Source: Massilicoli timonensis (GTDB lineage: Bacteria > Bacillota_I > Bacilli_A > Erysipelotrichales > Erysipelotrichaceae). From it: 32,000 nucleotides of DNA. The number at the start of each line of letters is the position of its first letter. Position 1 is the stretch's first letter. The position numbers and the translations under genes are program-made. The stretch is taken from contig NZ_LT963434.1 in the NCBI RefSeq assembly GCF_900199515.1, positions 2,042,180 to 2,074,179 on the forward strand. The letters are read 5' to 3'. Shown piece by piece: positions 17,010 through 31,212 of this stretch. The notes below the pieces were generated by a model. It did no database searches, was not told the origin of the DNA, and was given only the letters and a program-made list of their open reading frames with translations.

Positions 17010-18750
17010 AAAACTGTATCCTTATATGAAGCCATATCGCTTATCTTTATGGATCGCGGTACTGTGCGTTTCTCTTGAAACTGTTTTTGAGCTCATCATT
17101 CCGATGATGATGGCGGATATGATCGATGTCGGTGTAGCGGCGCGCGATCTTGACTATATGATTTGGAAAGGCATGCAGATGTCGGTATGCGCGGTCGTTT
17201 CTTTGATCTTGGGACTGCTTTACGCTCGATTTGCGGCAGTTGCGGCACAGAGCTTTGGAGCCGATCTGCGTATGGCGGAGTTTGAACAGGTGCAGAACTA
17301 TCGCTTTTCCAGTTTAGATCGTTTTGAGACTTCTTCTTTGGTTACACGCTTGACCAACGATGTGAATGTGCTGCAAAATGCGATTTCGCAAGGACTGCGT
17401 CCCGGCGTGCGGGCGCCGATGGTGCTGCTTACCGGTTTGAGCGTCGCCTTTATGATGAATGGAGAGTTGGCGCTTGTATTCGTTGTTGCGATTCCGATCT
17501 TGGGCGCCGCCTTGTTTATGATCGTGCGCAAGGTCGCGCCGATGTATGAGAAGCTGCAAAAAGCGATCGATCGGGTCAATCTGATCGTACAGGAAAATCT
17601 GACGGCGATCCGTGTAGTAAAATCATATGTGCGTGAGGATTTTGAACAGCGAAAATTTGCGGAAGTCAATGAGGATCTGATGAAAGTCAGCCAGCGGACC
17701 TTCCATTTTGCACAGATGAATATGCCGGCCTTTCAGTTTGTCATGTATGGAGTCATCATCATGATCTTGTGGTTTGGCGGCAATATCATTGAAGTAGGCG
17801 GCATGCAGGTGGGAGAGCTGACCGGATTTTTGAGCTATGTGTTACAGATCCTGAATTCTTTGATGATGCTTTCCGGAGTCTTTCTGCTGCTCATTCGCTC
17901 GATTGCTTCCGCAAAGCGAATCGAAGAGGTGCTGGATGAACCGCGTGATGAAAATTCTGCGCTTTGTACCCATGCACAGATCCAAAGCGGTTCGATTGAT
18001 TTTGAACATGTGTATTTTAAGTACAGTGAGGATGCATTGGAATATGTTTTAAGCGACATCAATCTGCATATCGAGAGCGGACAGACGATTGGGATCATGG
18101 GTGGTACCGGGGCGGCTAAAAGTACGTTGGTACAGCTCATTCCCCGTCTTTATGACACCAGCAAAGGCACGCTGAAGATCGACGGACGACCGATCGAAAC
18201 CTATGATCTGTATGAACTGCGTGATCAGATCAGCATGGTCTTACAAAACAACACGTTATTCAGCGGCACGATCAGGGAAAACCTGTGCTGGGGCAACCCA
18301 CATGCGACACAAGAAGAGCTGGAATGGGCTTGCCGCATTGCCTGTGCCGATGAATTTATCAAACAGAAGCCGAATGGCTATGATGAAGATCTGGGACAGG
18401 GCGGCGTGAATGTATCCGGCGGACAGAAGCAGCGGCTCTGTATTGCCAGAGCATTATTAAAGCATCCCAAGGTGCTGATCTTTGATGATTCTACTAGTGC
18501 CGTAGACAGTGCGACAGAAAGTACGATCCGCGAAGGACTGGCTTCTTTGAAAGATGTGACGAAGATCATCATTGCCCAACGGGTTACTTCCGTCATGAAT
18601 GCCGATCAGATCATCATCATGGAAGATGGAACGATTGCCGACAGCGGCACGCATGAGGAACTGTTGGCGCGCAATGCAACGTATCAGTCCTTATATCATT
18701 CACAGCAGGAAGGAGTGTTGGAAGATGGCAAGACCGATTTCCGGCGCTAA
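17002..18750 (+). CDS. ABC exporter half-transporter (TMD-NBD), subunit with degenerate catalytic residues
   Basis: Walker A GGTGAAKST, signature VSGGQ, Walker B LIFDDS (Asp where the catalytic Glu is expected), switch AQR (Gln instead of His). Start overlaps the marR stop. Confidence 0.9.
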   Translation: MLKKLYPYMKPYRLSLWIAVLCVSLETVFELIIPMMMADMIDVGVAARDLDYMIWKGMQMSVCAVVSLILGLLYARFAAVAAQSFGADLRMAEFEQVQNYRFSSLDRFETSSLVTRLTNDVNVLQNAISQGLRPGVRAPMVLLTGLSVAFMMNGELALVFVVAIPILGAALFMIVRKVAPMYEKLQKAIDRVNLIVQENLTAIRVVKSYVREDFEQRKFAEVNEDLMKVSQRTFHFAQMNMPAFQFVMYGVIIMILWFGGNIIEVGGMQVGELTGFLSYVLQILNSLMMLSGVFLLLIRSIASAKRIEEVLDEPRDENSALCTHAQIQSGSIDFEHVYFKYSEDALEYVLSDINLHIESGQTIGIMGGTGAAKSTLVQLIPRLYDTSKGTLKIDGRPIETYDLYELRDQISMVLQNNTLFSGTIRENLCWGNPHATQEELEWACRIACADEFIKQKPNGYDEDLGQGGVNVSGGQKQRLCIARALLKHPKVLIFDDSTSAVDSATESTIREGLASLKDVTKIIIAQRVTSVMNADQIIIMEDGTIADSGTHEELLARNATYQSLYHSQQEGVLEDGKTDFRR

Positions 18751-20581
18751 GCCGAAAGATTTCCGCTATACCTGGAAGCGGCTCATGCACTTCCTCGCAT
18801 TACAGAAATACCTGCTTTTGCTGGTCGGCGTTTTGGTGATCATTTCAGCCGGAGTGGAACTGATCGGCACTTATTTATTAAAGCCGATCATCAATGAATA
18901 TATCCTTCCGGCAGATTTATCGGGCCTGCTTGCGGTACTGGGATTTATGGCGCTCATGTATGGTGGCGGAGTAGCGGCGACATACGGCTATACCCAGATC
19001 ATGGTAAAAGCCGCGCAGAAAATCGTCTGTGAAATCAGAAACGCCCTGTTTGCGAAAATGCAGAAGCTGCCGCTAGTGTTCTTTGACAGCCGCACCCATG
19101 GTGATACGATGAGCCGATTTACCAATGATATTGATACTTTGGCAGAAGCGCTGAATAACAGCTTTGCGGTCGTGATCAAAAGCTTTATCCAGATTACAGG
19201 AACATTGACGCTGATCGTGCTCTTAAACTGGCAGCTGTCGATCATCGTATTGATCTGTTATCTGTTAATGTTTGCCTATATTTTATACAGCAGCCGCAGA
19301 AGCAAATACTATTATCATTTCCAGCAGAAACACTTAGGTGCGTTAAACGGCTTTGTGGAGGAAATGGTAGAAGGGGCGAAGGTCGTCAAGGTCTTTCATC
19401 ATGAACGGGAAAATCTGGAGGCCTTTGCCAAGAAAAACAAAGAACTGCGCAATGCGGCAATCGGCGCTTTAACGTATTCCGGCAGTATGGTGCCGATCGT
19501 CGTCAGTATCTCTTATGTGAATTATGCGATCGTTGCCGTAGTCGGCGGTTTTATGGCGGTCAAAGGCTGGAGCGATCTGGGTTCACTTGCCAGTTATCTG
19601 GTATTTGTGAGACAGCTGGCAATGCCGATCAATCAATTCACGATGCAAAGCAATTTCTTGCTTTCGGCAATGTCCGGGGCAGAGCGCATCTTTGAAGTGC
19701 TGGATCAAAAGGATGAAATAGATGAAGGAAAGGTAACACTGGCAAAAGTGAAGATCCTTGACGATGGTACGATGATAGAATGTAACGAAACGACCGGAAA
19801 CTGGGCATGGCGTCATCCGCGTGCGCACGGAGTCGAACTGGTGCCGTTAAAAGGAGATGTTCGCTTTGCGCATGTTACTTTCGGCTATCAAAGCAGTCAT
19901 CCGGTATTGAAGGACATTTCCTTATTTGCCAAGCCGGGCCAAAAAATCGCCTTTGTCGGTGCTACGGGAGCAGGTAAAACGACGATCACCAACTTGATCA
20001 ACCGCTTCTATGAGATTTCTTCCGGTGTGATCACTTATGATGGCATTGACATCCGTTTGATCGATAAGGCAGATCTGCGCCGCTCTTTGAGCATCGTATT
20101 ACAGGACACCCATTTATTTACCGGTACGATTGCGGATAATATCCGCTATGGGAATTTAGAAGCAAGCGATGAAGAAGTGATCGCGGCAGCCAAATTAGCC
20201 AATGCCTATTCTTTTATCAAGCGTTTGCCAAAGGGGTATGATACGATGATAAACGGTGATGGCGGCAATCTTTCCAGTGGCCAAAGACAGCTGCTGGCGA
20301 TCGCACGGGCAGCCATTCACAATCCACCGGTATTGATCTTAGATGAAGCGACCAGCTCGATCGATACGCATACGGAGAAATTGATCGAACAGGGCATGGA
20401 CGCCTTAATGGAAAATCGAACGGTATTTGTGATCGCGCATCGTCTTTCAACTGTACGCAACGCCCAGGCGATCATGGTATTGGATCATGGAGAGATCATC
20501 GAAAGAGGCACGCATGAGGAACTGTTGGCGCAGAAAGGGGTTTATTATCAGCTTTATACCGGGCAGTTTGAATTAGAATAA
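18725..20581 (+). CDS. ABC exporter half-transporter (TMD-NBD), canonical-catalytic subunit
   Basis: Walker A GATGAGKTT, signature LSSGQ, Walker B LILDEATS, switch AHR. ATG 18725 follows GAAGGAG and overlaps the upstream gene by 26 nt. Confidence 0.9.
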   Translation: MARPISGAKPKDFRYTWKRLMHFLALQKYLLLLVGVLVIISAGVELIGTYLLKPIINEYILPADLSGLLAVLGFMALMYGGGVAATYGYTQIMVKAAQKIVCEIRNALFAKMQKLPLVFFDSRTHGDTMSRFTNDIDTLAEALNNSFAVVIKSFIQITGTLTLIVLLNWQLSIIVLICYLLMFAYILYSSRRSKYYYHFQQKHLGALNGFVEEMVEGAKVVKVFHHERENLEAFAKKNKELRNAAIGALTYSGSMVPIVVSISYVNYAIVAVVGGFMAVKGWSDLGSLASYLVFVRQLAMPINQFTMQSNFLLSAMSGAERIFEVLDQKDEIDEGKVTLAKVKILDDGTMIECNETTGNWAWRHPRAHGVELVPLKGDVRFAHVTFGYQSSHPVLKDISLFAKPGQKIAFVGATGAGKTTITNLINRFYEISSGVITYDGIDIRLIDKADLRRSLSIVLQDTHLFTGTIADNIRYGNLEASDEEVIAAAKLANAYSFIKRLPKGYDTMINGDGGNLSSGQRQLLAIARAAIHNPPVLILDEATSSIDTHTEKLIEQGMDALMENRTVFVIAHRLSTVRNAQAIMVLDHGEIIERGTHEELLAQKGVYYQLYTGQFELE

Positions 20582-20682
20582 AAAACAGATAAAGCATTGT
20601 GCTTGAGATGGAATGTTCTGCTGCACAAGATATCATCAAGCGATCGAATCAAGAAAACAATTAAAAAGAAGGAGGCTGTTTT

Positions 20683-21156
20683 ATGAAAAACAAATTAGTG
20701 GCATATTTTAGTGCAAGTGGTGTAACGGCACATTTGGCGGCTCATCTGGCTGAGGCAGTCGATGCGGATCTGCATGAGATCAAACCGCTTGTGCCTTACA
20801 GCGATGCCGATCTCAACTGGAATGATGCGCACAGCCGCAGCAGCGTGGAAATGAAGGATAAGACATCACGTCCTGCCATTGCCAATCATGTGGAACACAT
20901 GGAAGGCTATGATACCATCTATATCGGTTTCCCGATCTGGTGGTACACCGCCCCGACGATCATCCATACCTTTTTAGAGCAGTATGATCTAAACGGTAAA
21001 ACGATCATTCCTTTCGCAACATCAGGAGGCAGCGCAATGGGAGCGACCAATCAGGATCTTGCCCCATCATGTCCCGGCGCGATCTTAAAAGAAGGAAAAC
21101 GCTGGAATGCAGATGCTTCTTTGACCACATTAAAAAATTGGGCAGAACAGTTATAA
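20683..21156 (+). CDS. flavodoxin-like protein (cytoplasmic paralogue of 15723-16331)
   Basis: LVAYFSASGVT and FPIWWYTAP...PFATSGGS motifs. No signal peptide. AAGGAGG SD. Confidence 0.85.
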   Translation: MKNKLVAYFSASGVTAHLAAHLAEAVDADLHEIKPLVPYSDADLNWNDAHSRSSVEMKDKTSRPAIANHVEHMEGYDTIYIGFPIWWYTAPTIIHTFLEQYDLNGKTIIPFATSGGSAMGATNQDLAPSCPGAILKEGKRWNADASLTTLKNWAEQL

Positions 21157-21170
21157 AGTGAGGCAGTGAA

Positions 21171-21683
21171 ATGGAATTCAAAGATGTAATAAACAATCGC
21201 TATTCTTGTAAGAACTTTGACGGCCGCAAAGTAGAGCGTGCGGCATTACAGGAAATTTTAGAAGCCGCAAGGAAAGCGCCGACTGCGAAAAACTTGCAGG
21301 AATATCATCTTTATGTCATAGAAAGTGAGGAAGGATTGGCAAAGATCGATCGCTGTACGCCGTGTCGCTATCATGCGGGTACCGTAATCATGGTAACCTA
21401 TGACAGCACCAATGTCTTTGTCTATCCCGGTGACAAGCGTGATTCCGGTATAGAAGATGCGACCATCGCCGCAACGCATCTCATGCTTGCGGCAGCCGAT
21501 CAGCAGGTAGACAGCTGCTGGATCAATTACTTCGATCCGCAAGAACTGGCAGAAGTCATGGAGCTGCCAAAACAGGAAGAAGTGCTGATGCTATTAGATC
21601 TGGGCTATCATGCGCAGGGAACAGGACCGCTGTCATCTCACAGTGAACGCAAATCGCTGAGGGAAACGGTTACTTATTTGTAG
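21171..21683 (+). CDS. nitroreductase-family oxidoreductase
   Basis: RYSCKNFDGRKVERAALQEILEAARKAPTAKNLQ is a typical nitroreductase N-terminus. 170 aa. Confidence 0.85.
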   Translation: MEFKDVINNRYSCKNFDGRKVERAALQEILEAARKAPTAKNLQEYHLYVIESEEGLAKIDRCTPCRYHAGTVIMVTYDSTNVFVYPGDKRDSGIEDATIAATHLMLAAADQQVDSCWINYFDPQELAEVMELPKQEEVLMLLDLGYHAQGTGPLSSHSERKSLRETVTYL

Positions 21684-21699
21684 ATAAGATGCAGGGATC

Positions 21700-21748
21700 A
21701 AACCACCTGTTTACGATCTTATGAAAGGATCATAAGCAGGTGGTTTTC
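21700..21748 (+). terminator. rho-independent terminator
   Basis: 10-bp stem AAACCACCTG/CAGGTGGTTT with further inner pairing, followed by TTTTC. Confidence 0.75.
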
Positions 21749-21971
21749 TATGCGCAAAGCATGCAATTAAGGGAAAGGGAATGGCAGGAAGAAAAAGGTT
21801 TCCTTTATTTGTAAGATCAGACTGTTTTTGCGTTTGACATGCTATTTTAAGCTTACGCTACATAAGAAACAAAAACGATGCCACACTATTTAAGAATTTC
21901 CTATCGGAAATTTAATAACTGTTAAGATTTCACATTCCCTTTCTGTGATAAAGTAAAGACAGGTGATGATC

Positions 21972-22628
21972 ATGAAAGGTTTATTTTCAATAATCAGTTT
22001 TGCTTTAATCAATATCATGGGACTTGTACAGTTCAATATTCCCACTTTGCAGGAAAAACAGGCGGATCATTTGATGATCGTTGCGCATCCGGATGATGAG
22101 ATTTTGTGGGGCGGTGATGAACTGCGGCGGGAGAACTATGTCGTGGTATGTTTGACAAATGGCGATAATGATGTGCGGCGCAAGGAGTTTTTTTCGGTGA
22201 TGAAACAAAGCGGGGACAAAGGCATTATCCTCAGTTTTCCCGATAAGGTAGCGGGCAAGCGCAGCGAGTGGAAAAAAGAATATACGCAGATTGAAAAAGA
22301 AGTCGAACAGCTGATGAAATCACGTGAATGGAAAAAGATCGTAACGCATAATCCGGATGGAGAATACGGACATAATCATCATAAGATGACAAGCCGCATC
22401 GTAACGGATATCGCAGAAGAAATAGGATACCGCAATCTCTATTATTTCAATCATTACACCAAAAAAGATGATCTGAAGAAAAGTGATGAACAGCCGTATA
22501 TCAGCGAAGCGGGCATTAAGTGGAAAGGAGAAATGATGAAGCTTTATCAATCACAAAGCGCAGTCAATGAGAAACTGAAACATATGTATGGCTATGAAAA
22601 GCTGATCCCGCAAAAAGAGTGGGAATAA
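21972..22628 (+). CDS. PIG-L/LmbE-family N-acetylglucosaminyl deacetylase with N-terminal signal-anchor
   Basis: MKGLFSIISFALINIMGLVQF is hydrophobic. MIVAHPDDEILWGG and GHNHH are metal-site motifs. AGGTGA SD before ATG 21972. Confidence 0.8.
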   Translation: MKGLFSIISFALINIMGLVQFNIPTLQEKQADHLMIVAHPDDEILWGGDELRRENYVVVCLTNGDNDVRRKEFFSVMKQSGDKGIILSFPDKVAGKRSEWKKEYTQIEKEVEQLMKSREWKKIVTHNPDGEYGHNHHKMTSRIVTDIAEEIGYRNLYYFNHYTKKDDLKKSDEQPYISEAGIKWKGEMMKLYQSQSAVNEKLKHMYGYEKLIPQKEWE

Positions 22629-22677
22629 TGTTCCTTAAATTTGCTTGTCTATGATGATTGTATGAACAAAAGAATCG

Positions 22678-22707
22678 ATGCTTCCCGATAAAGGGAGGCA
22701 TTTTTTA
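22678..22707 (+). terminator. rho-independent terminator
   Basis: 9-bp stem ATGCTTCCC/GGGAGGCAT (one G-U) followed by TTTTTT. Confidence 0.7.
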
Positions 22708-22713
22708 TACAAT

Positions 22714-22737
22714 AAAAACCGGCATCTGCCGGTTTTT
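22714..22737. terminator. bidirectional rho-independent terminator
   Basis: AAAAACCGGCA-tc-TGCCGGTTTTT, perfect, with A-run and T-run flanks. Confidence 0.85.
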
Positions 22738-22775
22738 CATAACATCAAACATTTTATCACTATCATAATTAAGGA

Positions 22776-22850
22776 AGGGGCAAAGCAGAATAGGAGAGGG
22801 AGGAATTTTATTAAATGTTCATGTCATGTAAGAATCACCGCTTTGCCCCT
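22776..22850 (-). other. long GC-rich hairpin in the gtrB 3' region enclosing a CCUCCCUCUCC motif
   Basis: Perfect 11-bp arms AGGGGCAAAGC (22776-22786) and GCTTTGCCCCT (22840-22850) with a 53-nt loop. The minus-strand loop reads ...AAUUCCUCCCUCUCCUAUUC... Confidence 0.4.
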
Positions 22851-22854
22851 GTCC

Positions 22855-23766
22855 TTAAAGCGGCAGATTGCTCTCTTTTACGATATAGAGCGGTCGCTGC
22901 TTATTTTCCATATAATCTTTTGTTACATATTTGCCGACGATGCCGATGAAGATCAGCTGGATCCCACTTAGCAGCAATAAGATCGTGACCAATCCGATCG
23001 CAAAGCTTGGGGCAAATAGCAGAAAGCCTAGGGAGATGACAGATGCCAGACATAAGGCGATCCCCAATACCATCGCCATATGTACCGGTGCTTCAGAGAA
23101 AGATAAGATACCTTCCATCGCATAGGAGAATAATGATTTCAGGCTCCATTTACTGTTTCCGGCTGCCCGTTCTTCATCTTCAAAGGGAATCCATTTGGTC
23201 TTAAAGCCGACAAAGCTGAACAATCCTTTAGAATAGCGGTTGTATTCCTTCATTGATAAGATCGCATTGATCATACAGCGTTTCATCATCCGGAAATCGC
23301 CTTCGCCCTCTTTCATCTCGACATCGCTTAAACTGTTGATGACCTGATAAAAGTTGTGAGATACGAATTTGCGCAGTCTGCTGTCATGCGTGCGGGAAAT
23401 TCTGAGCCCACCGGCACAGTCATAGCCTTCTTCGCTGATCGCCGCATACATATCTTTCAAAAGATAAGGCGGATGTTGTAAATCAGCGTCCATGATGACC
23501 GCATAATCGCCATGACAGGCTTTTAATCCCGCATACATGGCCGCTTCTTTTCCGAAATTGCGGGAGAAAGAAACATAAATGCAGTGTTCGTCAATGGCTG
23601 ACAGCTGTTTGAGCAGCTTCAGCGTATCATCGCTTGAACCGTCATTGACCATGACGATTTCATAGTCCACCGGCATCTGATCCACCTGCTTACAGAGAGC
23701 TTCATGAAATAATAAGATGCTTTCTTCTTCATTGTAACATGGTACGATAATGCTTAATAAACTCAT
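22855..23766 (-). CDS. polyprenyl-phosphate glycosyltransferase (GtrB/CsbB type, GT2 with two C-terminal TM helices)
   Basis: SIIVPCYNEEE...VMVNDGSSDDT...IMDADLQHPP motifs with hydrophobic C-terminal helices. AAGGAG SD. Confidence 0.85.
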   Translation of the reverse strand: MSLLSIIVPCYNEEESILLFHEALCKQVDQMPVDYEIVMVNDGSSDDTLKLLKQLSAIDEHCIYVSFSRNFGKEAAMYAGLKACHGDYAVIMDADLQHPPYLLKDMYAAISEEGYDCAGGLRISRTHDSRLRKFVSHNFYQVINSLSDVEMKEGEGDFRMMKRCMINAILSMKEYNRYSKGLFSFVGFKTKWIPFEDEERAAGNSKWSLKSLFSYAMEGILSFSEAPVHMAMVLGIALCLASVISLGFLLFAPSFAIGLVTILLLLSGIQLIFIGIVGKYVTKDYMENKQRPLYIVKESNLPL

Positions 23767-24161
23767 ACGATCATCTCCTTATGTTCCTTGAATACAAATA
23801 TTTTGGCGGCGATATAATTAAACAGCAGCACAGCTCCCGATACAAACAGCTTAGAAAGCATGATGGCGATCGGCATCCGTGATAACAGAAATAATAAAAC
23901 ATTTTCCATCAGCAGGGAAAGCACTCTGCTGGTAAAAAAGGAAACCGCCTGCCGCGTGAGATTGCCTTTGCTTTGAAAAACGATGCCGCGGTTGGTAACG
24001 AAAGCAAATAAAACGGCAAATATCCATGCGATGCTGTTTGATGCGATCAGTTCAATGCCTAAGATCACATGGCATAAATAAAACACGATAAAGTTAATGG
24101 CGGTCGTGCAGATGCCAAACCAGATATACAGCAGGGTTTCACGAATTTGTGCTTTTCTCAT
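23763..24161 (-). CDS. GtrA-family small membrane protein (putative lipid-linked sugar flippase)
   Basis: About 132 aa with four hydrophobic helices. It sits between yfhO-like and gtrB-like genes. GGAGG lies 10 nt before ATG 24161. ATGA overlap with gtrB. Confidence 0.7.
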   Translation of the reverse strand: MRKAQIRETLLYIWFGICTTAINFIVFYLCHVILGIELIASNSIAWIFAVLFAFVTNRGIVFQSKGNLTRQAVSFFTSRVLSLLMENVLLFLLSRMPIAIMLSKLFVSGAVLLFNYIAAKIFVFKEHKEMIV

Positions 24162-26631
24162 AACGAATGCGCCTCCATTTCGCAAATAACAATACGCCTA
24201 AGGCGGTAAGGGACAGGATCTGTGCAGGAACTTTCAGTGGCGGCTGAAAATGAATCTTCACACGGTGCGTGCCTTTGTCGATCTGACATCCCACAAAACT
24301 GAGATTTACCGTTTCGAGCGGTACCTTCTTGCCATCGATCCAGATCGTATAACCGTCCTGTAACGGCAAAGAAGTGATCAGCCAGCCGTCCTTCTGCATC
24401 GTGATCTTCGCTTCATAAACAGCGTTTGTTTCATCATAAGTTTCATCAGTTACTGCCGTTTTGTTCTGCCACATCGTCTGAAAAAGAGCAGTCGGCAGTC
24501 GATAGGTTCGGATGTCGCTGAGCTGATAGTTGCCCGAGGAGAAAGTGATCTCTAACTGATCGCTTTGATGGGTGTAAAAGGTAAATTGGGTATGATGATT
24601 GGGATAAGTGGCGCCGCTGCCGCTGAGACGGTTACGCATGCCGTTGATCGTTACATCCAGATCGTTATAGTTAGAATGGATCGGTTTGATCTGCATCGTC
24701 ATGATCAGGATCTCATCTTGTAAAGGGTCCTGCAATGACAAACGCATCGTCTCTTTTTGACGGCTGTTAATATGCAATGTGTTTTGCTTGGCGCTGATCC
24801 ATTTCCCCTGCCGGCTGATTTCCTGCAAGTTCCATGTTTCCTTTGTCGGCTGTATCTGTGTGGTTTCGATCATGTCTTTGTCAGCAGAAACGACCGGTGT
24901 CAGTAAGAGCTGCGCGATCTTGTCAATATCTGACAGTGATGCAAACTGTGTTTGGGAAATGACTTGATCGCTGCCATAAGCAAAGGGCAGCACGTTTTTA
25001 TTTTCATATAAGGTCAAAGCACCTTTTTCGGCAATCGGCACATAACCGTAAGGCGGCTTGTTCTCGCTGATCAGATAGCGGGAAGAGCTGAAAGCCAAAA
25101 AGAAGGGATTGCCGTTTTCCAAGGTCGATACACGATTGCGTAAGGAAAGGTTGTTGCGCATGACATCATAATAGAAATGATTGTAGGACTGGGCATGGAT
25201 CGAACTGTAAATAGAAGTTTTGCCAAGCGGTGCCATGCTGAGATTCATCGACTGTGCATTTTCATGGTAGTCGGCGATCTTTGTAAAAGGTGTATGCGCT
25301 AAATCCAGCGATGCGATCCATGCTTTTTTCGCTGCCAGTTCTTTGATCCGCGCATAGGAGATTCGCGGTTCTCCCTGATTCGCCTGTACCAAGATGATTG
25401 CCATGATCAGCAGATAAGCATAATAGCCCTTTTGTTTGCGATTACCATTAGCCCAAAGAATCACAAAGGCGATCACAAAATCCCAAAATGCCCACAGCAT
25501 GTTTTTTTGATAAACGATCAGCGCACTGATCAAAAGCAAACAGAGCGTTTGCTTGGCAGAAAGCGATTCATGACGATCCAGCCATTTACATGTTAATAAG
25601 ATCAAAAACGGAAGCAGAGGGATGAGCGCTTTCGGGCGGGCATATAAGCCAAGATTCATAAGGTAAAGACAGATCGGTAAAAACAATATGCCCAGCATCA
25701 CGATCGCCGCAATTCCCTCTCTGCTTTTATATTTTCCTGCCCATAGGAACAGACAGAATCCCATTAGCAGGCCGACCCCCATACAGTAAGGGGAATAAAG
25801 CAGCGCTTCCATCTTTATGTCCGGAGTGAAGAGCGCAGGCAGCGAAAACGCCGCAGATGTCTTTGCTCCGGATGTGAACAACGCATAGGCGCACGGCATC
25901 CAGAAGAAAGCCGATACCAGTACTGCCCCGCTATGCAATAGGATCAAACTTTTCCATAGCTTTTTGGCAGACAGTTGATGCGGATCCCAGCTCATCATCA
26001 GATAGGCGAAGCAGGCAAGCGCCCCACCGACCGTAAAATAAAAACTGGTCAAGATCATCATCGTGATCGCAAACAGATATAGATCGTATTTCTGCTTTTG
26101 TAATAAGCGATCCGCACCGTAAAAGCCTAGGATGACAAACGGCATGTAAAGCACGAAGATGACCTGTTTGGCGCTGTGATAAAACATCGGCGCCGCCAGC
26201 AAAAGACAGAGTGCTCCGAAAAACGCGGTTGCCGCTGCGACATGGCGTTTCAGAAAATGATGCAGCAAGATGGCGCTGCTTCCCAGCGCGCTTAAATGAA
26301 TGATCGGCAAGATGAGCGACATCGAAAGGAAAGGAAATAAGTAAGATAACAGCACATCATAGCGATATAAGCCATAGTAAGCAAATGAAAAAACATTTTG
26401 TCCGCTGCCAAGATCGCTCATGAAATCCGGAAATAAACGATGTGTTCGGTAAAAGAAAGAACGGAAATCATCGGCAATGGCGATGTGCTGCGTATACCAG
26501 TCAGTCGAGGATCCAAATCCCTCCAACCAGATCAAACAGCCAAGTGCGCATAAAAAGGGAATGGCAAATAAAATGAGATCTTTCCACGAACGTTTCCATG
26601 CGATTCCCAAAGCATGCGGAAGTCGGCGCAT
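24139..26631 (-). CDS. YfhO-family polytopic membrane glycosyltransferase
   Basis: 830 aa. Many TM helices, then a soluble C-terminal domain. The N-terminal DWYTQH...LGSGQNVFSFAYYGLY pattern is typical of YfhO proteins. Confidence 0.8.
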   Translation of the reverse strand: MRRLPHALGIAWKRSWKDLILFAIPFLCALGCLIWLEGFGSSTDWYTQHIAIADDFRSFFYRTHRLFPDFMSDLGSGQNVFSFAYYGLYRYDVLLSYLFPFLSMSLILPIIHLSALGSSAILLHHFLKRHVAAATAFFGALCLLLAAPMFYHSAKQVIFVLYMPFVILGFYGADRLLQKQKYDLYLFAITMMILTSFYFTVGGALACFAYLMMSWDPHQLSAKKLWKSLILLHSGAVLVSAFFWMPCAYALFTSGAKTSAAFSLPALFTPDIKMEALLYSPYCMGVGLLMGFCLFLWAGKYKSREGIAAIVMLGILFLPICLYLMNLGLYARPKALIPLLPFLILLTCKWLDRHESLSAKQTLCLLLISALIVYQKNMLWAFWDFVIAFVILWANGNRKQKGYYAYLLIMAIILVQANQGEPRISYARIKELAAKKAWIASLDLAHTPFTKIADYHENAQSMNLSMAPLGKTSIYSSIHAQSYNHFYYDVMRNNLSLRNRVSTLENGNPFFLAFSSSRYLISENKPPYGYVPIAEKGALTLYENKNVLPFAYGSDQVISQTQFASLSDIDKIAQLLLTPVVSADKDMIETTQIQPTKETWNLQEISRQGKWISAKQNTLHINSRQKETMRLSLQDPLQDEILIMTMQIKPIHSNYNDLDVTINGMRNRLSGSGATYPNHHTQFTFYTHQSDQLEITFSSGNYQLSDIRTYRLPTALFQTMWQNKTAVTDETYDETNAVYEAKITMQKDGWLITSLPLQDGYTIWIDGKKVPLETVNLSFVGCQIDKGTHRVKIHFQPPLKVPAQILSLTALGVLLFAKWRRIRYEKSTNS

Positions 26632-26694
26632 AGCATCATCTCCTTTTCACACCGTTAGTTTCTCATCTATTTATTAAATTATGCCCTATGAAAA

Positions 26695-26710
26695 TCTTAA
26701 TAATTCTTAA
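26695..26710. promoter_or_regulatory. 10-bp-phased direct repeat TCTTAA-n4-TCTTAA (candidate response-regulator box)
   Basis: TCTTAA at 26695-26700 and 26705-26710, in the 146-bp divergent region between yfhO and the response-regulator gene. Confidence 0.3.
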
Positions 26711-26777
26711 ACGCTGATAAAAAGTGAAAAAACTTGTTGTATAATGAGGACAAAGAATAGGAGAAGAGGATGGTCAT

Positions 26778-27467
26778 ATGCAAAATAAAATATTGGTCGT
26801 AGATGATAATCAGGAGATTCGTGAAGTGATCCGCGTATTATTAGGCAGTGAGGGTTATGAGATCATGGAAGCATCTAACGGAAGTGATGCCATTGCTTTG
26901 GCAAAACAAGCTGATCTGATCATTTTAGATATCATGATGCCGCAGACAGATGGCTTTCAGGCGTGTATCAAGATCCGTGAATTTTCCAATGCGCCGATCT
27001 TATTTTTAAGTGCCAAGGGGCTGGATCAGGACAAAGCATTAGGCTTTTCCAGCGGCGGCGATGATTATTTGACAAAGCCGTTTTCTTACAATGAGCTGCT
27101 TGCCCGCGTCAAAGCGCTGCTTAGAAGATATCAGGTCTATAAGGGAAAACGAGAAGAAGTCGAAGAACCGGTTTTACAAAGACAGGATCTGAAATTAGAT
27201 ACGAATACCCATGTCGTTTATCAAAACGGGAAACTGGTCAATTTGACCGATCTGGAATACCAGATCTTGTACTTGCTGATGAAATACCCGCACAAGATCT
27301 ATTCGATCCAGAATCTGTATGAGAGCATTTGGAAAGAACCGTATTTCTATACGGCCAATAATACCGTAATGGTACATATCCGGAATTTACGAAAGAAGCT
27401 GGAGGTGGACAGTGATGCGCCAAGCTACATCAAAACCGTTTGGGGAAAAGGATATCGCTTTGAATAA
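26778..27467 (+). CDS. OmpR/PhoB-family response regulator
   Basis: Receiver motifs ILVVDDN, LIILDIMMP and LSAKG, plus the winged-helix C-terminus YIKTVWGKGYRF. Confidence 0.9.
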   Translation: MQNKILVVDDNQEIREVIRVLLGSEGYEIMEASNGSDAIALAKQADLIILDIMMPQTDGFQACIKIREFSNAPILFLSAKGLDQDKALGFSSGGDDYLTKPFSYNELLARVKALLRRYQVYKGKREEVEEPVLQRQDLKLDTNTHVVYQNGKLVNLTDLEYQILYLLMKYPHKIYSIQNLYESIWKEPYFYTANNTVMVHIRNLRKKLEVDSDAPSYIKTVWGKGYRFE

Positions 27468-29385
27468 ACCGCATAAGATGAAGAAAAGCGCCTTTTTCAT
27501 CAGAGTTTACTTAGTGCTGCTGATCAGTGTGGTCACCTTCTTTACGCTTTATGCGTATCGCAATGACGTATTGGATTACTGGGTGGAAAAGAACCGGATC
27601 GATCCTTCGCCTACTTTGCAGGAGGTGGAAAACATAAAGAAAGCCTTTTTGCAATATGATCCCGGTCAAGGGGATAAACAGGCAGCGGAAACGATCATCA
27701 GAGAAGAACTCGGATCTGACTATGACTTCATGGTATTGATCGAAGGCACTTGGACCGATACACAATCCGAGGTAGAAGCGGAAGAGTACTACAATATGTA
27801 TGTGCAGTCTTATATTTCACCTATGAGCAGTTATAGAGCAGAGTATGCTTATAGCTTTTCACTGACCTTTGGTAATGACAAGGCAGGCGAGATCACGCTG
27901 TATCCGCTGTTTGGTGAATTCTATGCGATGGCAAGGACGGTCTGTCTGCTTTTGGCGCTGCTTGTCGGCTTGATCATTGCCATAGGACTTTATCTGTCAC
28001 ACCGCCATCATTTGGGCAGCCGGATCACGCAGCGGCTTATGAAAAGTCCCGCGTTGAAATGGCTGCATCATCTCTCTGTCAAACTGCTGGCAGTCAATTT
28101 ATTTGCGGTGCTGTTGGCAGCTTCCACCTTTTTCTTTTTATATGAGAACCGTTACAGTTTTTTTGAGTTTGTCAATGAAATCGGCTATCAAAGGCAGGAT
28201 GTCGATGCCGTTGCCAAACAGGTACAGACGATGATCGAAGAAAAGCAATACCGTTTTCATGTCGATGAATCATCAGAAAGCGCCAATGCGCAGGCGTTAA
28301 GCAAAGATATTGCGGCGCTGATACCGGAAGATCTCAATGTTTATCTATATGATGAAAACACGTTTTATTATGCCGGATCGTACCAAAACACAGAAACGCG
28401 CTTTGTTCGCGGAAGCATGTATAATGTCAATATCGTTGCCAATCCCTGTATCAGGATTTATCCGGCACAGCTGGCAGATGGGATCGGAGAATTATGGATC
28501 ATTTATTATCCGTTAGTGGAACTGGTATTGCCATATGTCATCGTGGTTGCAATGATTGCCATTTCTTTATATCTCATCATCAGTTTATCTTTTACGCAGA
28601 AAAAAGTAACGGAGATCCGTTATATTTATGACGATATCGAAGTATTGTCAAATGGGGATTGGGATCATGAGGTATTTCAGGAATCAAGCGATGAGATCGG
28701 GCAGCTGGGCGATCATCTGAACCATATGCGCATATCCTTTTCTGAGAACATGGAGAAAGAAGCAGAAGCGAAAAGGGCCAATCAGGAACTCATCAATGCG
28801 ATGTCGCATGATCTGCGTACGCCGCTTACTTCGCTCATGGGGTATTTGGAGATCCTGCAGCATGAAAAATATGAGCCGGAGCAGTTATCGGAATATTTGC
28901 ATAAGTGCATGGAGAAATGTGGGCAGTTGAAAGATCGGGCGGATTCTTTGTTTAATTACTTTATGGTGTTTTCCGAAGAACCGCTGGAATTACAGGAAAT
29001 CAGTATCTTTCAGTTTATGGAAATCGTGGATAACATGAAAGAGGAATTGGAATTAAACGGTTTTCACATTGCGATGGATGAATTATCGCAGGATGCACTG
29101 GTCGAGATCGACCGCAGACAGATGGAGCGTGTGTTTGACAATGTACGCACCAATCTGATGAAATATGCAAGAAAAGAGGGCGTAGAGATCAAACTGTTTT
29201 TAGATAAGCGTTTTACGATCATGATCAAAAACAGCTGTAAAAGACAAAGTGAAGCAGAGAGCAACTGCATCGGCTTAAAAAGCATTTATAAGATCATGGA
29301 GCGGCACCGCGGTAAAATGGAGGCGAAAAAGGAAGGAGAGGAATTTATCCTGTTTCTGCATTTCCCGATCTCGCATATCGCTTAA
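27415..29385 (+). CDS. sensor histidine kinase with four TM helices and two large extracytoplasmic loops
   Basis: H-box AMSHDLRTPLTSLMGYLEIL and N-box NVRTNLMKYA. The start is either ATG 27415 (GGAGGTGG SD 27401-27408, 53-nt overlap with the RR gene) or ATG 27478. Confidence 0.85.
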   Translation: MRQATSKPFGEKDIALNKPHKMKKSAFFIRVYLVLLISVVTFFTLYAYRNDVLDYWVEKNRIDPSPTLQEVENIKKAFLQYDPGQGDKQAAETIIREELGSDYDFMVLIEGTWTDTQSEVEAEEYYNMYVQSYISPMSSYRAEYAYSFSLTFGNDKAGEITLYPLFGEFYAMARTVCLLLALLVGLIIAIGLYLSHRHHLGSRITQRLMKSPALKWLHHLSVKLLAVNLFAVLLAASTFFFLYENRYSFFEFVNEIGYQRQDVDAVAKQVQTMIEEKQYRFHVDESSESANAQALSKDIAALIPEDLNVYLYDENTFYYAGSYQNTETRFVRGSMYNVNIVANPCIRIYPAQLADGIGELWIIYYPLVELVLPYVIVVAMIAISLYLIISLSFTQKKVTEIRYIYDDIEVLSNGDWDHEVFQESSDEIGQLGDHLNHMRISFSENMEKEAEAKRANQELINAMSHDLRTPLTSLMGYLEILQHEKYEPEQLSEYLHKCMEKCGQLKDRADSLFNYFMVFSEEPLELQEISIFQFMEIVDNMKEELELNGFHIAMDELSQDALVEIDRRQMERVFDNVRTNLMKYARKEGVEIKLFLDKRFTIMIKNSCKRQSEAESNCIGLKSIYKIMERHRGKMEAKKEGEEFILFLHFPISHIA

Positions 29386-29399
29386 AGAGATGGATATCA

Positions 29400-29436
29400 A
29401 AAGAAATGTCAGCAGTCGTGCGGCGTTTCTTTTTTT
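29400..29436 (+). terminator. rho-independent terminator
   Basis: 9-bp stem AAAGAAATG/CGTTTCTTT (one G-U) with a 15-nt loop, followed by a T-run. Confidence 0.55.
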
Positions 29437-29574
29437 GCATAGGACATTTGCGGGGAATGGGATTGTATAAAAAAAGATGATTTTGTAAACGATTACACTT
29501 TCTTTTTTTGAAACGTGCTTTTTCAGTTTGATTATATTATAATTACGATATGAGATAGAAAAGGAGAAACCATT

Positions 29575-31212
29575 ATGAATCGTGCTATTTATATTACCGG
29601 TCATAAAAATCCCGATACTGATTCGATCTGTGCGGCGATCGCTTATGCGCATCTGAAGCAAAGCTGCGGAATTGATGCGATCGCATGTCGCCTGGGCGAA
29701 CTGAACACAGAAACGGAATTTGTCCTGAATAAGTTTAAGGCGCCGCTGCCTAAGCTCATTCACAGTGCCCGCTGTAAGCTAAGCGACATCGACATGGATC
29801 AGGCAGAACTGGTCAGTCCCGATACGACGATCAAAGAGGCGTGGGATCTGATCATTCGCATCAAGAATAAATCACTGTTTGTCGTGGACGAGCAGCAGCG
29901 TTTGATCGGTGTCGTTTCGATGTCGAGCTTATCGAATGTGCTGATGAGTGATTTTAAGAACATCCGTGAATTTATGATGAAGACCCCACTATCTAATATA
30001 CAGAAAACATTGAATGCGACCTATATCGTAAAAAGCGATCTGTATAAAAGCAGCGGTTATGTGCATATTTTGGTGTCAGGCGATCTGGCGGATTGTGAAG
30101 ATGTCTTTGAAAATTCGATCGTGCTGCTGGGCAATCAGCCGGATATTCAAAAGAAAGCGATCTTGCAGGGGGCAAGCTGTATGATCGTGATCGGCAATCC
30201 GCAGGTAAGCGAGGAAATCATTGATCTGGCAAAAGAACGGGACTGTTCGATCCTCTCTACGCCATATGACGCATTGCAGGCAGCGCGCTTGATTTATCAG
30301 ACACCTTCGATCGACAATGTGATGGGTTTAGATGTCATGGTATTCCATGATCGGGAATTTGTCGATGATGTATCGGATAAGATGAGCAAGACGCGTTTCA
30401 GAAGTTATCCGGTGTTGGATGAGCATAAACGGGTCATCGGCGCCGTATCGCGTTTTCATCTGTTCAATTATGAAAAAAAGAAGCTGATCTTATTGGATCA
30501 TAATGAGCGTTCACAGAGCATCAATGATCTGGAAATGGCAGAAGTGCTGGAAATCATCGACCATCACCGCATCGGCGATATTGAAACGAGCAATCCGATC
30601 AATTTTCGCAACCAGCAGATCGGCAGCACCTGTTCCATTATTGCGACGATGTATAAAGAGCAGGGCATTGAGCCGACACCGACGATCGCGGGATTATTAT
30701 GTTGTGCGATCATATCGGATACGATGAATTTTAATTCTCCGACATCAACGGCACTGGATCGCTCGATTGCCGATGATCTGGCACAGCTTGCGGGCATTGA
30801 TACGGATGCGCTCGCCAAAGAAATGTATGAATCGGTGGCGACGCTGCGTTTTAAGTCTTTCGGGGAAATTCTTTATAATGATTTTAAGGAATTTTCCATA
30901 GAAGGCACCAGACTGGGGATCGGACAAATCAATCTGTTGGATATTCGTGAACTGGAGATCATCAAGAAAGAGTTTGTCAATTACATGGAAAAGGTCAATA
31001 ATGCGAATCAATATGATCTGCTGATGATGGTCTTTACCAATGCGGAAGGCAAGGGCAGCAATCTGGTGTTTGTGGGAAGCAAGGGCTGGATCATCGATCA
31101 GGCATTCAAAGATGCGCAGAAGGAAAAAATGTATTTTGTGGAGAATGTCGTATCGCGTAAAAAACAGCTGATTCCGGCAATCTCAAAAGTATTGAAGGAA
31201 GTATCGCTTTGA
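29575..31212 (+). CDS. family II (DHH/DHHA2) inorganic pyrophosphatase with CBS/DRTGG regulatory insert
   Basis: N-terminus ITGHKNPDTDSICAAIAYA, then LLDHNE and IIDHHRIG (DHH motifs). A CBS-like pair and a DRTGG-like segment are inserted. AAGGAG SD. Confidence 0.85.
   Translation: MNRAIYITGHKNPDTDSICAAIAYAHLKQSCGIDAIACRLGELNTETEFVLNKFKAPLPKLIHSARCKLSDIDMDQAELVSPDTTIKEAWDLIIRIKNKSLFVVDEQQRLIGVVSMSSLSNVLMSDFKNIREFMMKTPLSNIQKTLNATYIVKSDLYKSSGYVHILVSGDLADCEDVFENSIVLLGNQPDIQKKAILQGASCMIVIGNPQVSEEIIDLAKERDCSILSTPYDALQAARLIYQTPSIDNVMGLDVMVFHDREFVDDVSDKMSKTRFRSYPVLDEHKRVIGAVSRFHLFNYEKKKLILLDHNERSQSINDLEMAEVLEIIDHHRIGDIETSNPINFRNQQIGSTCSIIATMYKEQGIEPTPTIAGLLCCAIISDTMNFNSPTSTALDRSIADDLAQLAGIDTDALAKEMYESVATLRFKSFGEILYNDFKEFSIEGTRLGIGQINLLDIRELEIIKKEFVNYMEKVNNANQYDLLMMVFTNAEGKGSNLVFVGSKGWIIDQAFKDAQKEKMYFVENVVSRKKQLIPAISKVLKEVSL

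Follow-up and report, generated by a model that had tools for sequence, protein, structure and literature searches.

N-acetylglucosamine (GlcNAc) is a known cargo of glycosylation systems of the CsbB/GtcA/YfhO type. In the Arn pathway, which is under PmrAB control and made up of ArnC, ArnD, ArnEF and ArnT, the deacylase ArnD works at the cytoplasmic face of the membrane, as does NaxD, and both belong to families other than PIG-L. Three-component glycosylation of teichoic acids is established for CsbB/GtcA/YfhO of Bacillus subtilis and for Lmo2550/GtcA/Lmo1079 and GtlA/GtlB of Listeria (PMC7389260). In streptococci, PplD, a polysaccharide-peptidoglycan linkage de-N-acetylase with a CE4 (beta/alpha)7-barrel (PMC8807736), converts GlcNAc to glucosamine (GlcN) on wall polysaccharide outside the cell, a change that brings in positive charge and gives protection from cationic proteins of the host (PMC8807736). 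NaxD acts on undecaprenyl-phosphate-linked sugar, and the NaxD-dependent modification of lipid A with galactosamine (GalN) is controlled by PmrAB (PMC10927774). The GalN of Mycobacterium and Corynebacterium arabinogalactan involves PpgS, Rv3632 and Rv3779, with a deacetylase still to be identified (PMC9671496). Finally, the Pig-L protein CD630_23150 of Clostridioides difficile has a predicted N-terminal transmembrane (TM) segment, and its deletion alters envelope-related phenotypes (PMC12613277); that study reads the protein through the biology of glycosylphosphatidylinositol anchors and gives no substrate, and YfhO is absent from its text (PMC12613277). Here, we describe a locus of Massilicoli timonensis in which a yfhO-gtrA-gtrB operon is accompanied by a gene for a PIG-L deacetylase and by a two-component system (TCS). 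It lies in a stretch of 32,000 nucleotides, referred to below as the window (contig NZ_LT963434.1, positions 2,042,180 to 2,074,179).

We find that the pairing of PIG-L with YfhO is not peculiar to this window and recurs across many gut Firmicutes. This suggests a module of four proteins, regulated by the TCS, that would put an N-acetyl-hexosamine (HexNAc) on a wall polymer and then de-N-acetylate it outside the cell, leaving a positive charge behind. We give this reading a probability of roughly one half. Sequence comparison is enough to show three of its elements, namely the predicted outward location of the PIG-L protein, its apparently intact active site and its linkage to YfhO. The locus had been read in much the same way before, in an original prediction made from the letters of the window, and as far as sequence goes that first reading appears supported: all six genes, their motifs, their overlaps and the divergent region lie where it placed them and belong to the families that it named.

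Conservation of the PIG-L and YfhO pairing

Two samples were examined. One consists of 41 Erysipelotrichales genomes, that is, 40 relatives and this one. The other comes from a scan with one genome per species that returned 445 relatives; the best 80 loci were taken, and they belong to Erysipelotrichales, Lachnospiraceae, Ruminococcus, Eubacterium and other groups. These loci share ancestry, and their counts are not independent trials. The PIG-L clade is present in 8 of the 41 genomes (seven of the relatives plus this one). All eight of these also encode YfhO, versus 21 of 41 overall, and in six of the eight the two genes are adjacent. In the wider scan, a YfhO gene lies beside PIG-L in 59 of the 80 loci, in Erysipelotrichales and Clostridia alike, often on the same strand and across a gap of <300 bp. 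This figure comprises 55 loci found by tblastn within 3 kb, three that tblastn missed and Pfam picked up (L030, L054 and L091), and one in which the genes are within 10 kb. GtrB is encoded within 3 kb of PIG-L in 27 of the loci and GtrA in 21.

The two genes occur in at least six arrangements. PIG-L may converge on gtrB (the arrangement of this window), diverge from yfhO with the regulator and kinase genes after it on its own strand, or come last in a yfhO-gtrA-gtrB-PIG-L operon. Elsewhere PIG-L precedes yfhO, yfhO precedes PIG-L, or the order is PIG-L-yfhO-gtrB-gtrA. The conserved core of the module is PIG-L plus YfhO. Because their linkage outlasts repeated rearrangement across two classes, it provides strong evidence that the two proteins form a functional pair. 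It had been suggested earlier that co-occurrence of PIG-L and the TCS beside yfhO/gtrAB be counted across genomes, and that neighbours not conserved with the operon would speak against the proposal. When counted, the linkage recurs: YfhO accompanies PIG-L in the 59 loci given above, the TCS is linked in about 26, and a cis element is common to the promoter regions.

In two relatives of one genus, a PIG-L gene fused to Big_2 domains heads a cluster (L013, G040:C43, 5199-11126; L015, G032:C100, 4918-10971) that also encodes UDP-galactopyranose mutase (Glf), two TagF-like glycerophosphotransferases and an ABC-2 permease. YfhO is not adjacent in one of these clusters, and in the other the nearest copy is 15 kb away. 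The PIG-L clade is therefore tied to synthesis of teichoic-acid-type polymers even without an adjacent YfhO.

We found no paper on the pairing in the literature searched for YfhO together with PIG-L, LmbE or deacetylase. The earlier remark that such a combination had not been described thus stands for PIG-L plus YfhO within that literature; it does not stand for the underlying concept, which has precedents in PplD, in NaxD and the Arn pathway, and in mycobacterial GalN.

Topology and active site of the PIG-L protein

The PIG-L gene (21972..22628, plus strand) encodes a protein of 218 residues, predicted from PF02585, an AlphaFold2 (AF2) model and alignment with MshB to be a PIG-L/LmbE (CE14) zinc de-N-acetylase. 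A list of open reading frames starts the gene at GTG 21963; an AGGTG ribosome-binding site precedes ATG 21972. The protein matches PF02585 with 48 bits (cut-off 28.2) over profile positions 1-128 of 129, and its residues 1-19 form a signal anchor, which a linker of about 12 residues joins to the catalytic domain. Both the AHPDDE and the GHNHH motif are present. The original prediction had pointed to AHPDDE and HNHH and to an N-terminal signal anchor as the only hydrophobic segment; the motifs are found, Pfam confirms the family, and residues 1-19 are indeed the sole hydrophobic segment of the protein.

Comparison with homologs bears on the side of the membrane on which the enzyme works. A hydrophobic N-terminal segment, signal or anchor, stands ahead of the first strand in 98 of 99 homologs, and the mean net charge falls from +2.8 before this segment to +0.26 over the 15 residues that follow. 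Canonical lipoboxes occur in about eight homologs (e.g. LSGC, LTAC and LTGC), and AxA-type cleavage sites in others. Long relatives carry Big_2, CWB2, choline-binding, fn3 or RicinB domains, all known from exported or wall-bound proteins. The first four kinds are located between the anchor and the PIG-L domain where the order could be resolved; fusions with RicinB are taken from a precomputed Pfam list only. Among the examined loci, PIG-L is joined to two or three Big_2 domains (L013, L015 and L090), to a Listeria-Bacteroides repeat with three CWB2 domains (L080), and to choline-binding repeats (L063 and L091). The wall-domain fusion at L091 is encoded directly upstream of a YfhO gene. Since signal anchors or lipoboxes are combined with wall-binding fusions, the clade appears to work outside the cell, and every in-silico indicator has the catalytic domain of the PIG-L protein facing outward, anchored by one N-terminal helix. 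A cytoplasmic location had been named as the finding that would overturn the proposal; the anchors, lipoboxes, charge bias and wall-domain fusions all say otherwise.

Other architectures of the clade were seen as well. At L063 (10555-12468), the gene for the choline-binding-repeat fusion is followed by one for a DUF6020 membrane protein in place of YfhO, and DUF6020 may be another transferase partner there. Forms of about 440 residues (P0124-P0128) carry a single signal anchor and then two tandem PIG-L domains of the clade. About 60 protein clusters (P0136-P0199, e.g. P0146), of about 704 residues, join a polytopic DUF6056 protein to a C-terminal PIG-L domain; the DUF6056 part covers residues 9-470 and has an SNDDW motif after its first helix. 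In profile-profile comparison with hhalign, DUF6056 and YfhO matched with 50% probability, over a hydrophobic stretch. The AF2 model of the DUF6056::PIG-L fusion was poor (pLDDT 65); a Foldseek search with this low-confidence model gave no match below E 1e-3, with ArnT (5f15) and STT3 (6ftg_5) as weak matches only. Given these values, we do not claim the glycosyltransferase fold GT-C for DUF6056.

The AF2 model of the PIG-L protein itself, built on the 99 homologs, has a pLDDT of 92. In a Foldseek search, its top 38 ranked PDB matches all have the PIG-L/LmbE fold (E 4e-8 to 5e-5); they include diacetylchitobiose deacetylase, TT1542, BshB, MshB, BC1534, Orf2* and teicoplanin deacetylases, at 12-20% identity. 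A single-sequence search of solved structures with the PIG-L protein returned no match, and a profile search reached MshB only. With the profile of the clade, H39, D41, D42, Y132, H134 and H137 align with H13, D15, D16, Y142, H144 and H147 of MshB. The zinc triad is thus H39, D42 and H137 (H13, D16 and H147 in MshB), D41 corresponds to the general base D15, and Y132 and H134 correspond to the catalytic Y142 and H144. None of the six residues varies across the 99 homologs. At the position of MshB D146 the protein has H136, a histidine that is nearly invariant in the clade. Because the zinc and catalytic residues of MshB align and stay invariant, the enzyme looks catalytically competent.

Most of the characterised members of the PIG-L fold use GlcNAc-bearing substrates, and this is the sole basis on which we name the sugar GlcNAc. 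The protein is not a CE4 enzyme: Pfam gives PF02585 only and no PF01522, and no CE4 structure is among its fold matches. PplD was considered as a possible relative of PIG-L and rejected, since it is a CE4 enzyme (PMC8807736) and therefore a functional analogue.

The operon, the adjacent two-component system and their genome context

The minus-strand operon encodes the three components of the glycosylation system. YfhO (24139..26631, 830 residues) is a predicted extracytoplasmic glycosyltransferase of GT-C type that matches PF09586 with 141 bits over model positions 28-829 of 835. From its low Pfam score and its association with the PIG-L gene, YfhO here appears to be one of a divergent group that travels with PIG-L. 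D44, H49 and R57, near the N-terminus and after a hydrophobic segment at 18-36, are invariant in 19 PIG-L-linked YfhO orthologs. The C-terminal third of YfhO scores 60 bits against PgfM1 (cut-off 1400) and 44 bits against PgfM2 (cut-off 1500), below the cut-off in both cases. GtrA (23763..24161, 132 residues) is a small membrane protein of the GtrA/GtcA family and a putative flippase for lipid-linked sugars, with four hydrophobic segments and 63 bits against PF04138 (GtrA_DPMS_TM). GtrB (22855..23766, 303 residues) is a polyprenyl-phosphate sugar synthase of the GtrB/CsbB type, in family GT2 (PF00535, 119 bits). It has a DAD motif of the DxD type and two C-terminal hydrophobic segments (220-238 and 259-277), and its orthologs in linked loci are 52-57% identical. 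Its best matches among the NCBIfam equivalogs are PgfS (306.5 bits, cut-off 500) and ArnC (147.5 bits, cut-off 529), both below cut-off.

The gtrA gene starts 23 nt inside yfhO, its ATG is preceded by GGAGG, and it shares a 4-nt ATGA with gtrB. The coordinates, overlapping ends and Pfam families that had been given for a three-component operon are thus all correct, and PIG-L does converge on the operon, with terminator hairpins between them. These lie at 22677-22702 (plus strand, identified by a terminator scan together with the sequence), with a second, GC hairpin at 22714-22737. A promoter and terminator scan of the window produced no more sites than shuffled sequence did, and promoter positions are not drawn from it.

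On the other side of a divergent spacer of 146 bp (26632-26777) lie the TCS genes. The OmpR/PhoB-family response regulator (26778..27467, plus strand, 229 residues) has a receiver domain (PF00072, 94 bits) and a winged-helix Trans_reg_C domain (PF00486, 87 bits); its best NCBIfam match, the VanR family at 235 bits, is below the cut-off of 350. The sensor histidine kinase (27478..29385, plus strand, 635 residues; HisKA and HAMP in Pfam) begins with four hydrophobic segments, between which two loops lie outside, and continues with HAMP, HisKA and an ATP-binding domain that is reduced. Its start is most likely ATG 27478, 10 nt past the regulator stop, and not GTG 27412, because orthologs start there. 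The original prediction of a divergent OmpR-type regulator and a 4-TM kinase reading out of a shared 146-bp region agrees with these coordinates, domains and hydrophobic segments. There is no Pfam HATPase_c match in the kinase at E 0.001 or better. In an alignment of 11 kinase orthologs (window 27478-29385 together with L018, L020, L028, L033, L035, L039, L041, L065, L071 and L079), the H-box and N-box are invariant, and the DxGxG G1 box is absent, with a conserved N...ESNxIGLKS in its place. Orthologs come in two forms, with one sensor module (2 TM, 440-464 residues) or two (4 TM, 593-676 residues), which implies that the first module was gained or lost between genera. The regulator, 54-63% identical, adjoins the module together with the kinase in about 22 loci. 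In several genera PIG-L is followed by regulator and kinase on the same strand, the regulator gene beginning 6-40 bp after PIG-L.

Both transcription units are preceded by a repeated element. Two TTAAGAWTT boxes, 32 bp apart, lie upstream of PIG-L (21890-21898 and 21922-21930, plus strand), and two more, 10 bp apart (26692 and 26702), lie in the divergent spacer (26692..26710, minus strand); all are candidate sites for the regulator. TTAAGAWTT has five matches in the window versus 1.44 expected, and four of the five fall within the two promoter regions of the module. In ten loci of other genera, TTAAGA occurs upstream of yfhO, PIG-L and the regulator gene at 20.6 per kb (45 in 2,180 bp), and in the remaining intergenic regions of these loci, which have similar A+T content, at 0.82 per kb (9 in 10,930 bp). 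This amounts to an enrichment of about 25-fold in these promoter regions. The spacings of the repeats are about 10 bp or 21-23 bp. This phylogenetic footprint points to a direct-repeat operator common to both transcription units. The candidate operator, with its TTAAGA direct repeats and 10-bp period, resembles the PmrA box, TTTAAG-N5-TTTAAG / YTTAAK, through which naxD, a gene for lipid A amino-sugar modification, is controlled (PMC10927774). The resemblance may be just a family trait. Past the kinase, the window encodes a manganese-dependent inorganic pyrophosphatase of the CBS-DRTGG-DHH-DHHA2 type (29575-31212). Two relatives (L009 and L014) have a 71% identical protein encoded at the same spot beside the module, and this placement is probably only syntenic.

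The genome (2.5 Mb, 97% complete) has one YfhO and one PIG-L gene, five genes for TagF-like glycerophosphotransferases, four for LCP ligases, and three for CE4 deacetylases, all of the latter away from the module. No member of the Sulfatase/LtaS family was found in it. Because TagF and LCP genes are present and LtaS is absent, a teichoic-acid-like acceptor made by TagF is probable, and we infer a wall-linked polymer of this kind as the most plausible acceptor. The lack of an LtaS-family gene makes type I lipoteichoic acid an unlikely one. DltD was not found in the genome, and its sole DltB-like MBOAT protein is far below cut-off. A full-length MprF was not seen with the LPG_synthase_C model; a 305-residue open frame (G000:C4:328011-328796) matches the C-terminal LPG_synthase_C domain only. 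A route to positive charge other than Dlt would presumably fill a visible gap. The search for DltD came up empty in all 41 Erysipelotrichales genomes, whether or not they carry the module, and the absence of Dlt was accordingly rejected as a way of telling module carriers apart.

Proposed mechanism, alternatives and relation to known systems

In the pathway that we favour, GtrB would load undecaprenyl phosphate, on the inner side of the membrane, with an N-acetyl-hexosamine that is most likely GlcNAc. GtrB belongs to GT2; that its cargo would be an N-acetyl-hexosamine is suggested by its deacetylase partner. GtrA, to judge from its family, would carry the lipid-linked sugar to the outer face, where YfhO would attach it to a wall polymer, probably a teichoic-acid-like one made by TagF. 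PIG-L would strip the N-acetyl group after transfer and leave a protonatable amine (GlcN), the substrate and the order of steps both being presumed. Deacetylation after transfer is favoured because the wall-binding fusions place the enzyme in the wall, one of them directly upstream of YfhO. The OmpR-type regulator and its kinase would switch on both transcription units by way of the TTAAGA direct repeats, to which the regulator is expected to bind. Overall, the module would let the cell make its surface more positive on induction; no gene for Dlt D-alanylation was found in this lineage.

Several observations weigh against this proposal. The sugar of GtrB cannot be read from its sequence, PgfS and ArnC being its best NCBIfam matches and both below cut-off, and the acceptor polymer is itself inferred. 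The linker of about 12 residues would also suit a lipid-linked substrate before transfer. In this window PIG-L is a separate transcription unit, convergent on the operon and with terminators between, and a kinase that seems to lack a canonical G1 box is of uncertain activity. An adjacent YfhO is missing from 21 of the 80 loci, some of them on short contigs and some with unrelated neighbours, and the kinship of the loci makes the counts overstate their independence. Lastly, three clusters join a shortened PIG-L to a shortened CoaBC, a cytoplasmic protein. We do not take these as evidence of a cytoplasmic location: both halves are incomplete and the metagenome contigs are very short (1.8-3.6 kb), and for these reasons they look like rearrangements.

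It is also conceivable, but unlikely, that deacetylation comes earlier, at the lipid stage. On the outer leaflet, PIG-L would then turn flipped C55-P-GlcNAc into C55-P-GlcN, from which YfhO would transfer GlcN directly. The short linker and the lipoprotein homologs would hold the active site close to the surface of the membrane, and in about 60 clusters PIG-L is fused directly to polytopic membrane proteins. The same order, with flipping and deacetylation ahead of transfer, is found in the scheme for mycobacterial GalN (PMC9671496), and NaxD works on undecaprenyl-phosphate-linked GalNAc (PMC10927774). However, forms in which two to three Big_2 domains, three CWB2 domains or choline-binding repeats follow the anchor would have the enzyme within the wall and at a distance from the bilayer, and the form encoded directly upstream of YfhO at L091 is one of these. 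For such members at least, this argues that the substrate is a polymer. The modules that bind teichoic acid or wall polymers (CWB2 and choline-binding), together with the clusters encoding TagF, Glf and an ABC-2 permease in which some fused relatives are found, also make it very unlikely that the system glycosylates surface proteins in the manner of Pgf of Streptococcus mutans, with the deacetylase trimming protein-linked HexNAc. That idea draws on the PgfS match of GtrB (306 bits, its best in NCBIfam) and on the PgfM1 and PgfM2 matches in the C-terminal third of YfhO (60 and 44 bits), but these scores are far under the equivalog cut-offs of 500, 1400 and 1500. Nor is there a surface or adhesin protein among the Pfam-annotated genes of window 18599-31212, the flanks of the 80 loci having been checked in part.

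The substrate of PIG-L might instead be something else than the sugar that YfhO delivers, such as peptidoglycan or the GlcNAc of a polymer backbone or linkage unit, so that the enzyme either creates or unmasks the acceptor site for YfhO or brings about a separate, co-regulated change in charge. PplD offers a precedent, as an outside deacetylase that targets linkage-unit GlcNAc (PMC8807736), and the Big_2 fusions in the TagF/Glf clusters of two relatives, with YfhO not adjacent in one and 15 kb off in the other, fit such a role. We nevertheless consider it quite unlikely: the adjacency in 59 of 80 loci is tight, repeatedly rearranged and specifically with YfhO, and the three CE4 deacetylases already in the genome could serve peptidoglycan. 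That the genes are chance neighbours, and PIG-L a cytoplasmic housekeeping deacetylase with an N-terminal anchor, would agree with its separate, convergent transcription unit; to our knowledge, moreover, the structurally characterised PIG-L/LmbE enzymes among the fold matches are all soluble and cytoplasmic. Against this stand the linkage in at least six gene orders and two classes, the lipoboxes, wall-binding fusions and positive-inside charge bias, and the cis element that PIG-L has in common with the yfhO promoter region. Chance juxtaposition, like a cytoplasmic enzyme, is thereby effectively ruled out.

If the chemistry of the favoured pathway holds, it would be a fourth distinct enzymatic route to surface charge in Gram-positive bacteria, beside D-alanylation, lysyl-phosphatidylglycerol and CE4 de-N-acetylation. 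Erysipelotrichales and many Lachnospiraceae and Ruminococcaceae, the lineages in question, are abundant gut bacteria. Surface charge determines how sensitive bacteria are to lysozyme and to cationic peptides of the host, how phages adsorb to them, and how the immune system recognises commensals. The exported PIG-L proteins, which form a large and uncharacterised clade, would also gain a role, as would a divergent YfhO group. In wider terms, and tentatively, at somewhat less than even odds, the exported PIG-L clade may be a missing class of enzyme by which HexNAc, once delivered by transferases of the YfhO or DUF6056 type, becomes free amino sugar on teichoic or wall polymers. Gut Firmicutes that lack Dlt would then have in it an inducible charge system, controlled by a dedicated TCS through PmrA-like TTAAG repeats, and a Gram-positive counterpart of Arn and NaxD.

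Each of the described systems has part of this arrangement. The locus is like CsbB/GtcA/YfhO in its three families (GT2, GtrA-family and YfhO GT-C), whose genes are co-transcribed and overlap; it differs in that an exported PIG-L protein and a dedicated TCS travel with the transferase, in that its YfhO is divergent (141 bits), and in having no LtaS gene. The cytoplasmic PIG-L/LmbE enzymes (MshB, BshB, BC1534, and the diacetylchitobiose and teicoplanin deacetylases; PMC4101496) have the same fold and the same zinc and catalytic residues, whereas identity is 12-20% and the proteins described here have an anchor or lipobox, wall fusions, and H136 for MshB D146. CD630_23150, with the TM segment predicted at its N-terminus, is likewise a PIG-L protein from a bacterium. 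PplD resembles the proposed enzyme in de-N-acetylating wall polysaccharide outside the cell and so adding charge, but it is a CE4 enzyme and not a Rossmann-like PIG-L/CE14 one, its target is the linkage unit, and no link to a GT-C transferase or a TCS has been reported for it.

In the mycobacterial GalN system, a GT2 enzyme, a small membrane partner and a GT-C transferase similarly bring an amino sugar to a wall polysaccharide by way of a polyprenyl-phosphate N-acetyl-sugar. Here, by contrast, a candidate class of deacetylase is linked to the transferase, and the organisms and the acceptor are different; the clade thus presents a candidate enzyme type for the deacetylation step of the mycobacterial modification. 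The likeness to Arn and NaxD takes in both chemistry and control. There, too, a GT2 enzyme supplies the N-acyl sugar on undecaprenyl phosphate, a deacylase bares the amine, and a flippase and a GT-C transferase bring the sugar to its acceptor, under OmpR-family control through direct repeats of the TTAAG type and with resistance to cationic peptides as the outcome. The acceptor in those pathways is the lipid A of Gram-negative bacteria, whereas the PIG-L protein described here would act outside the single-membrane envelope of a Firmicute.

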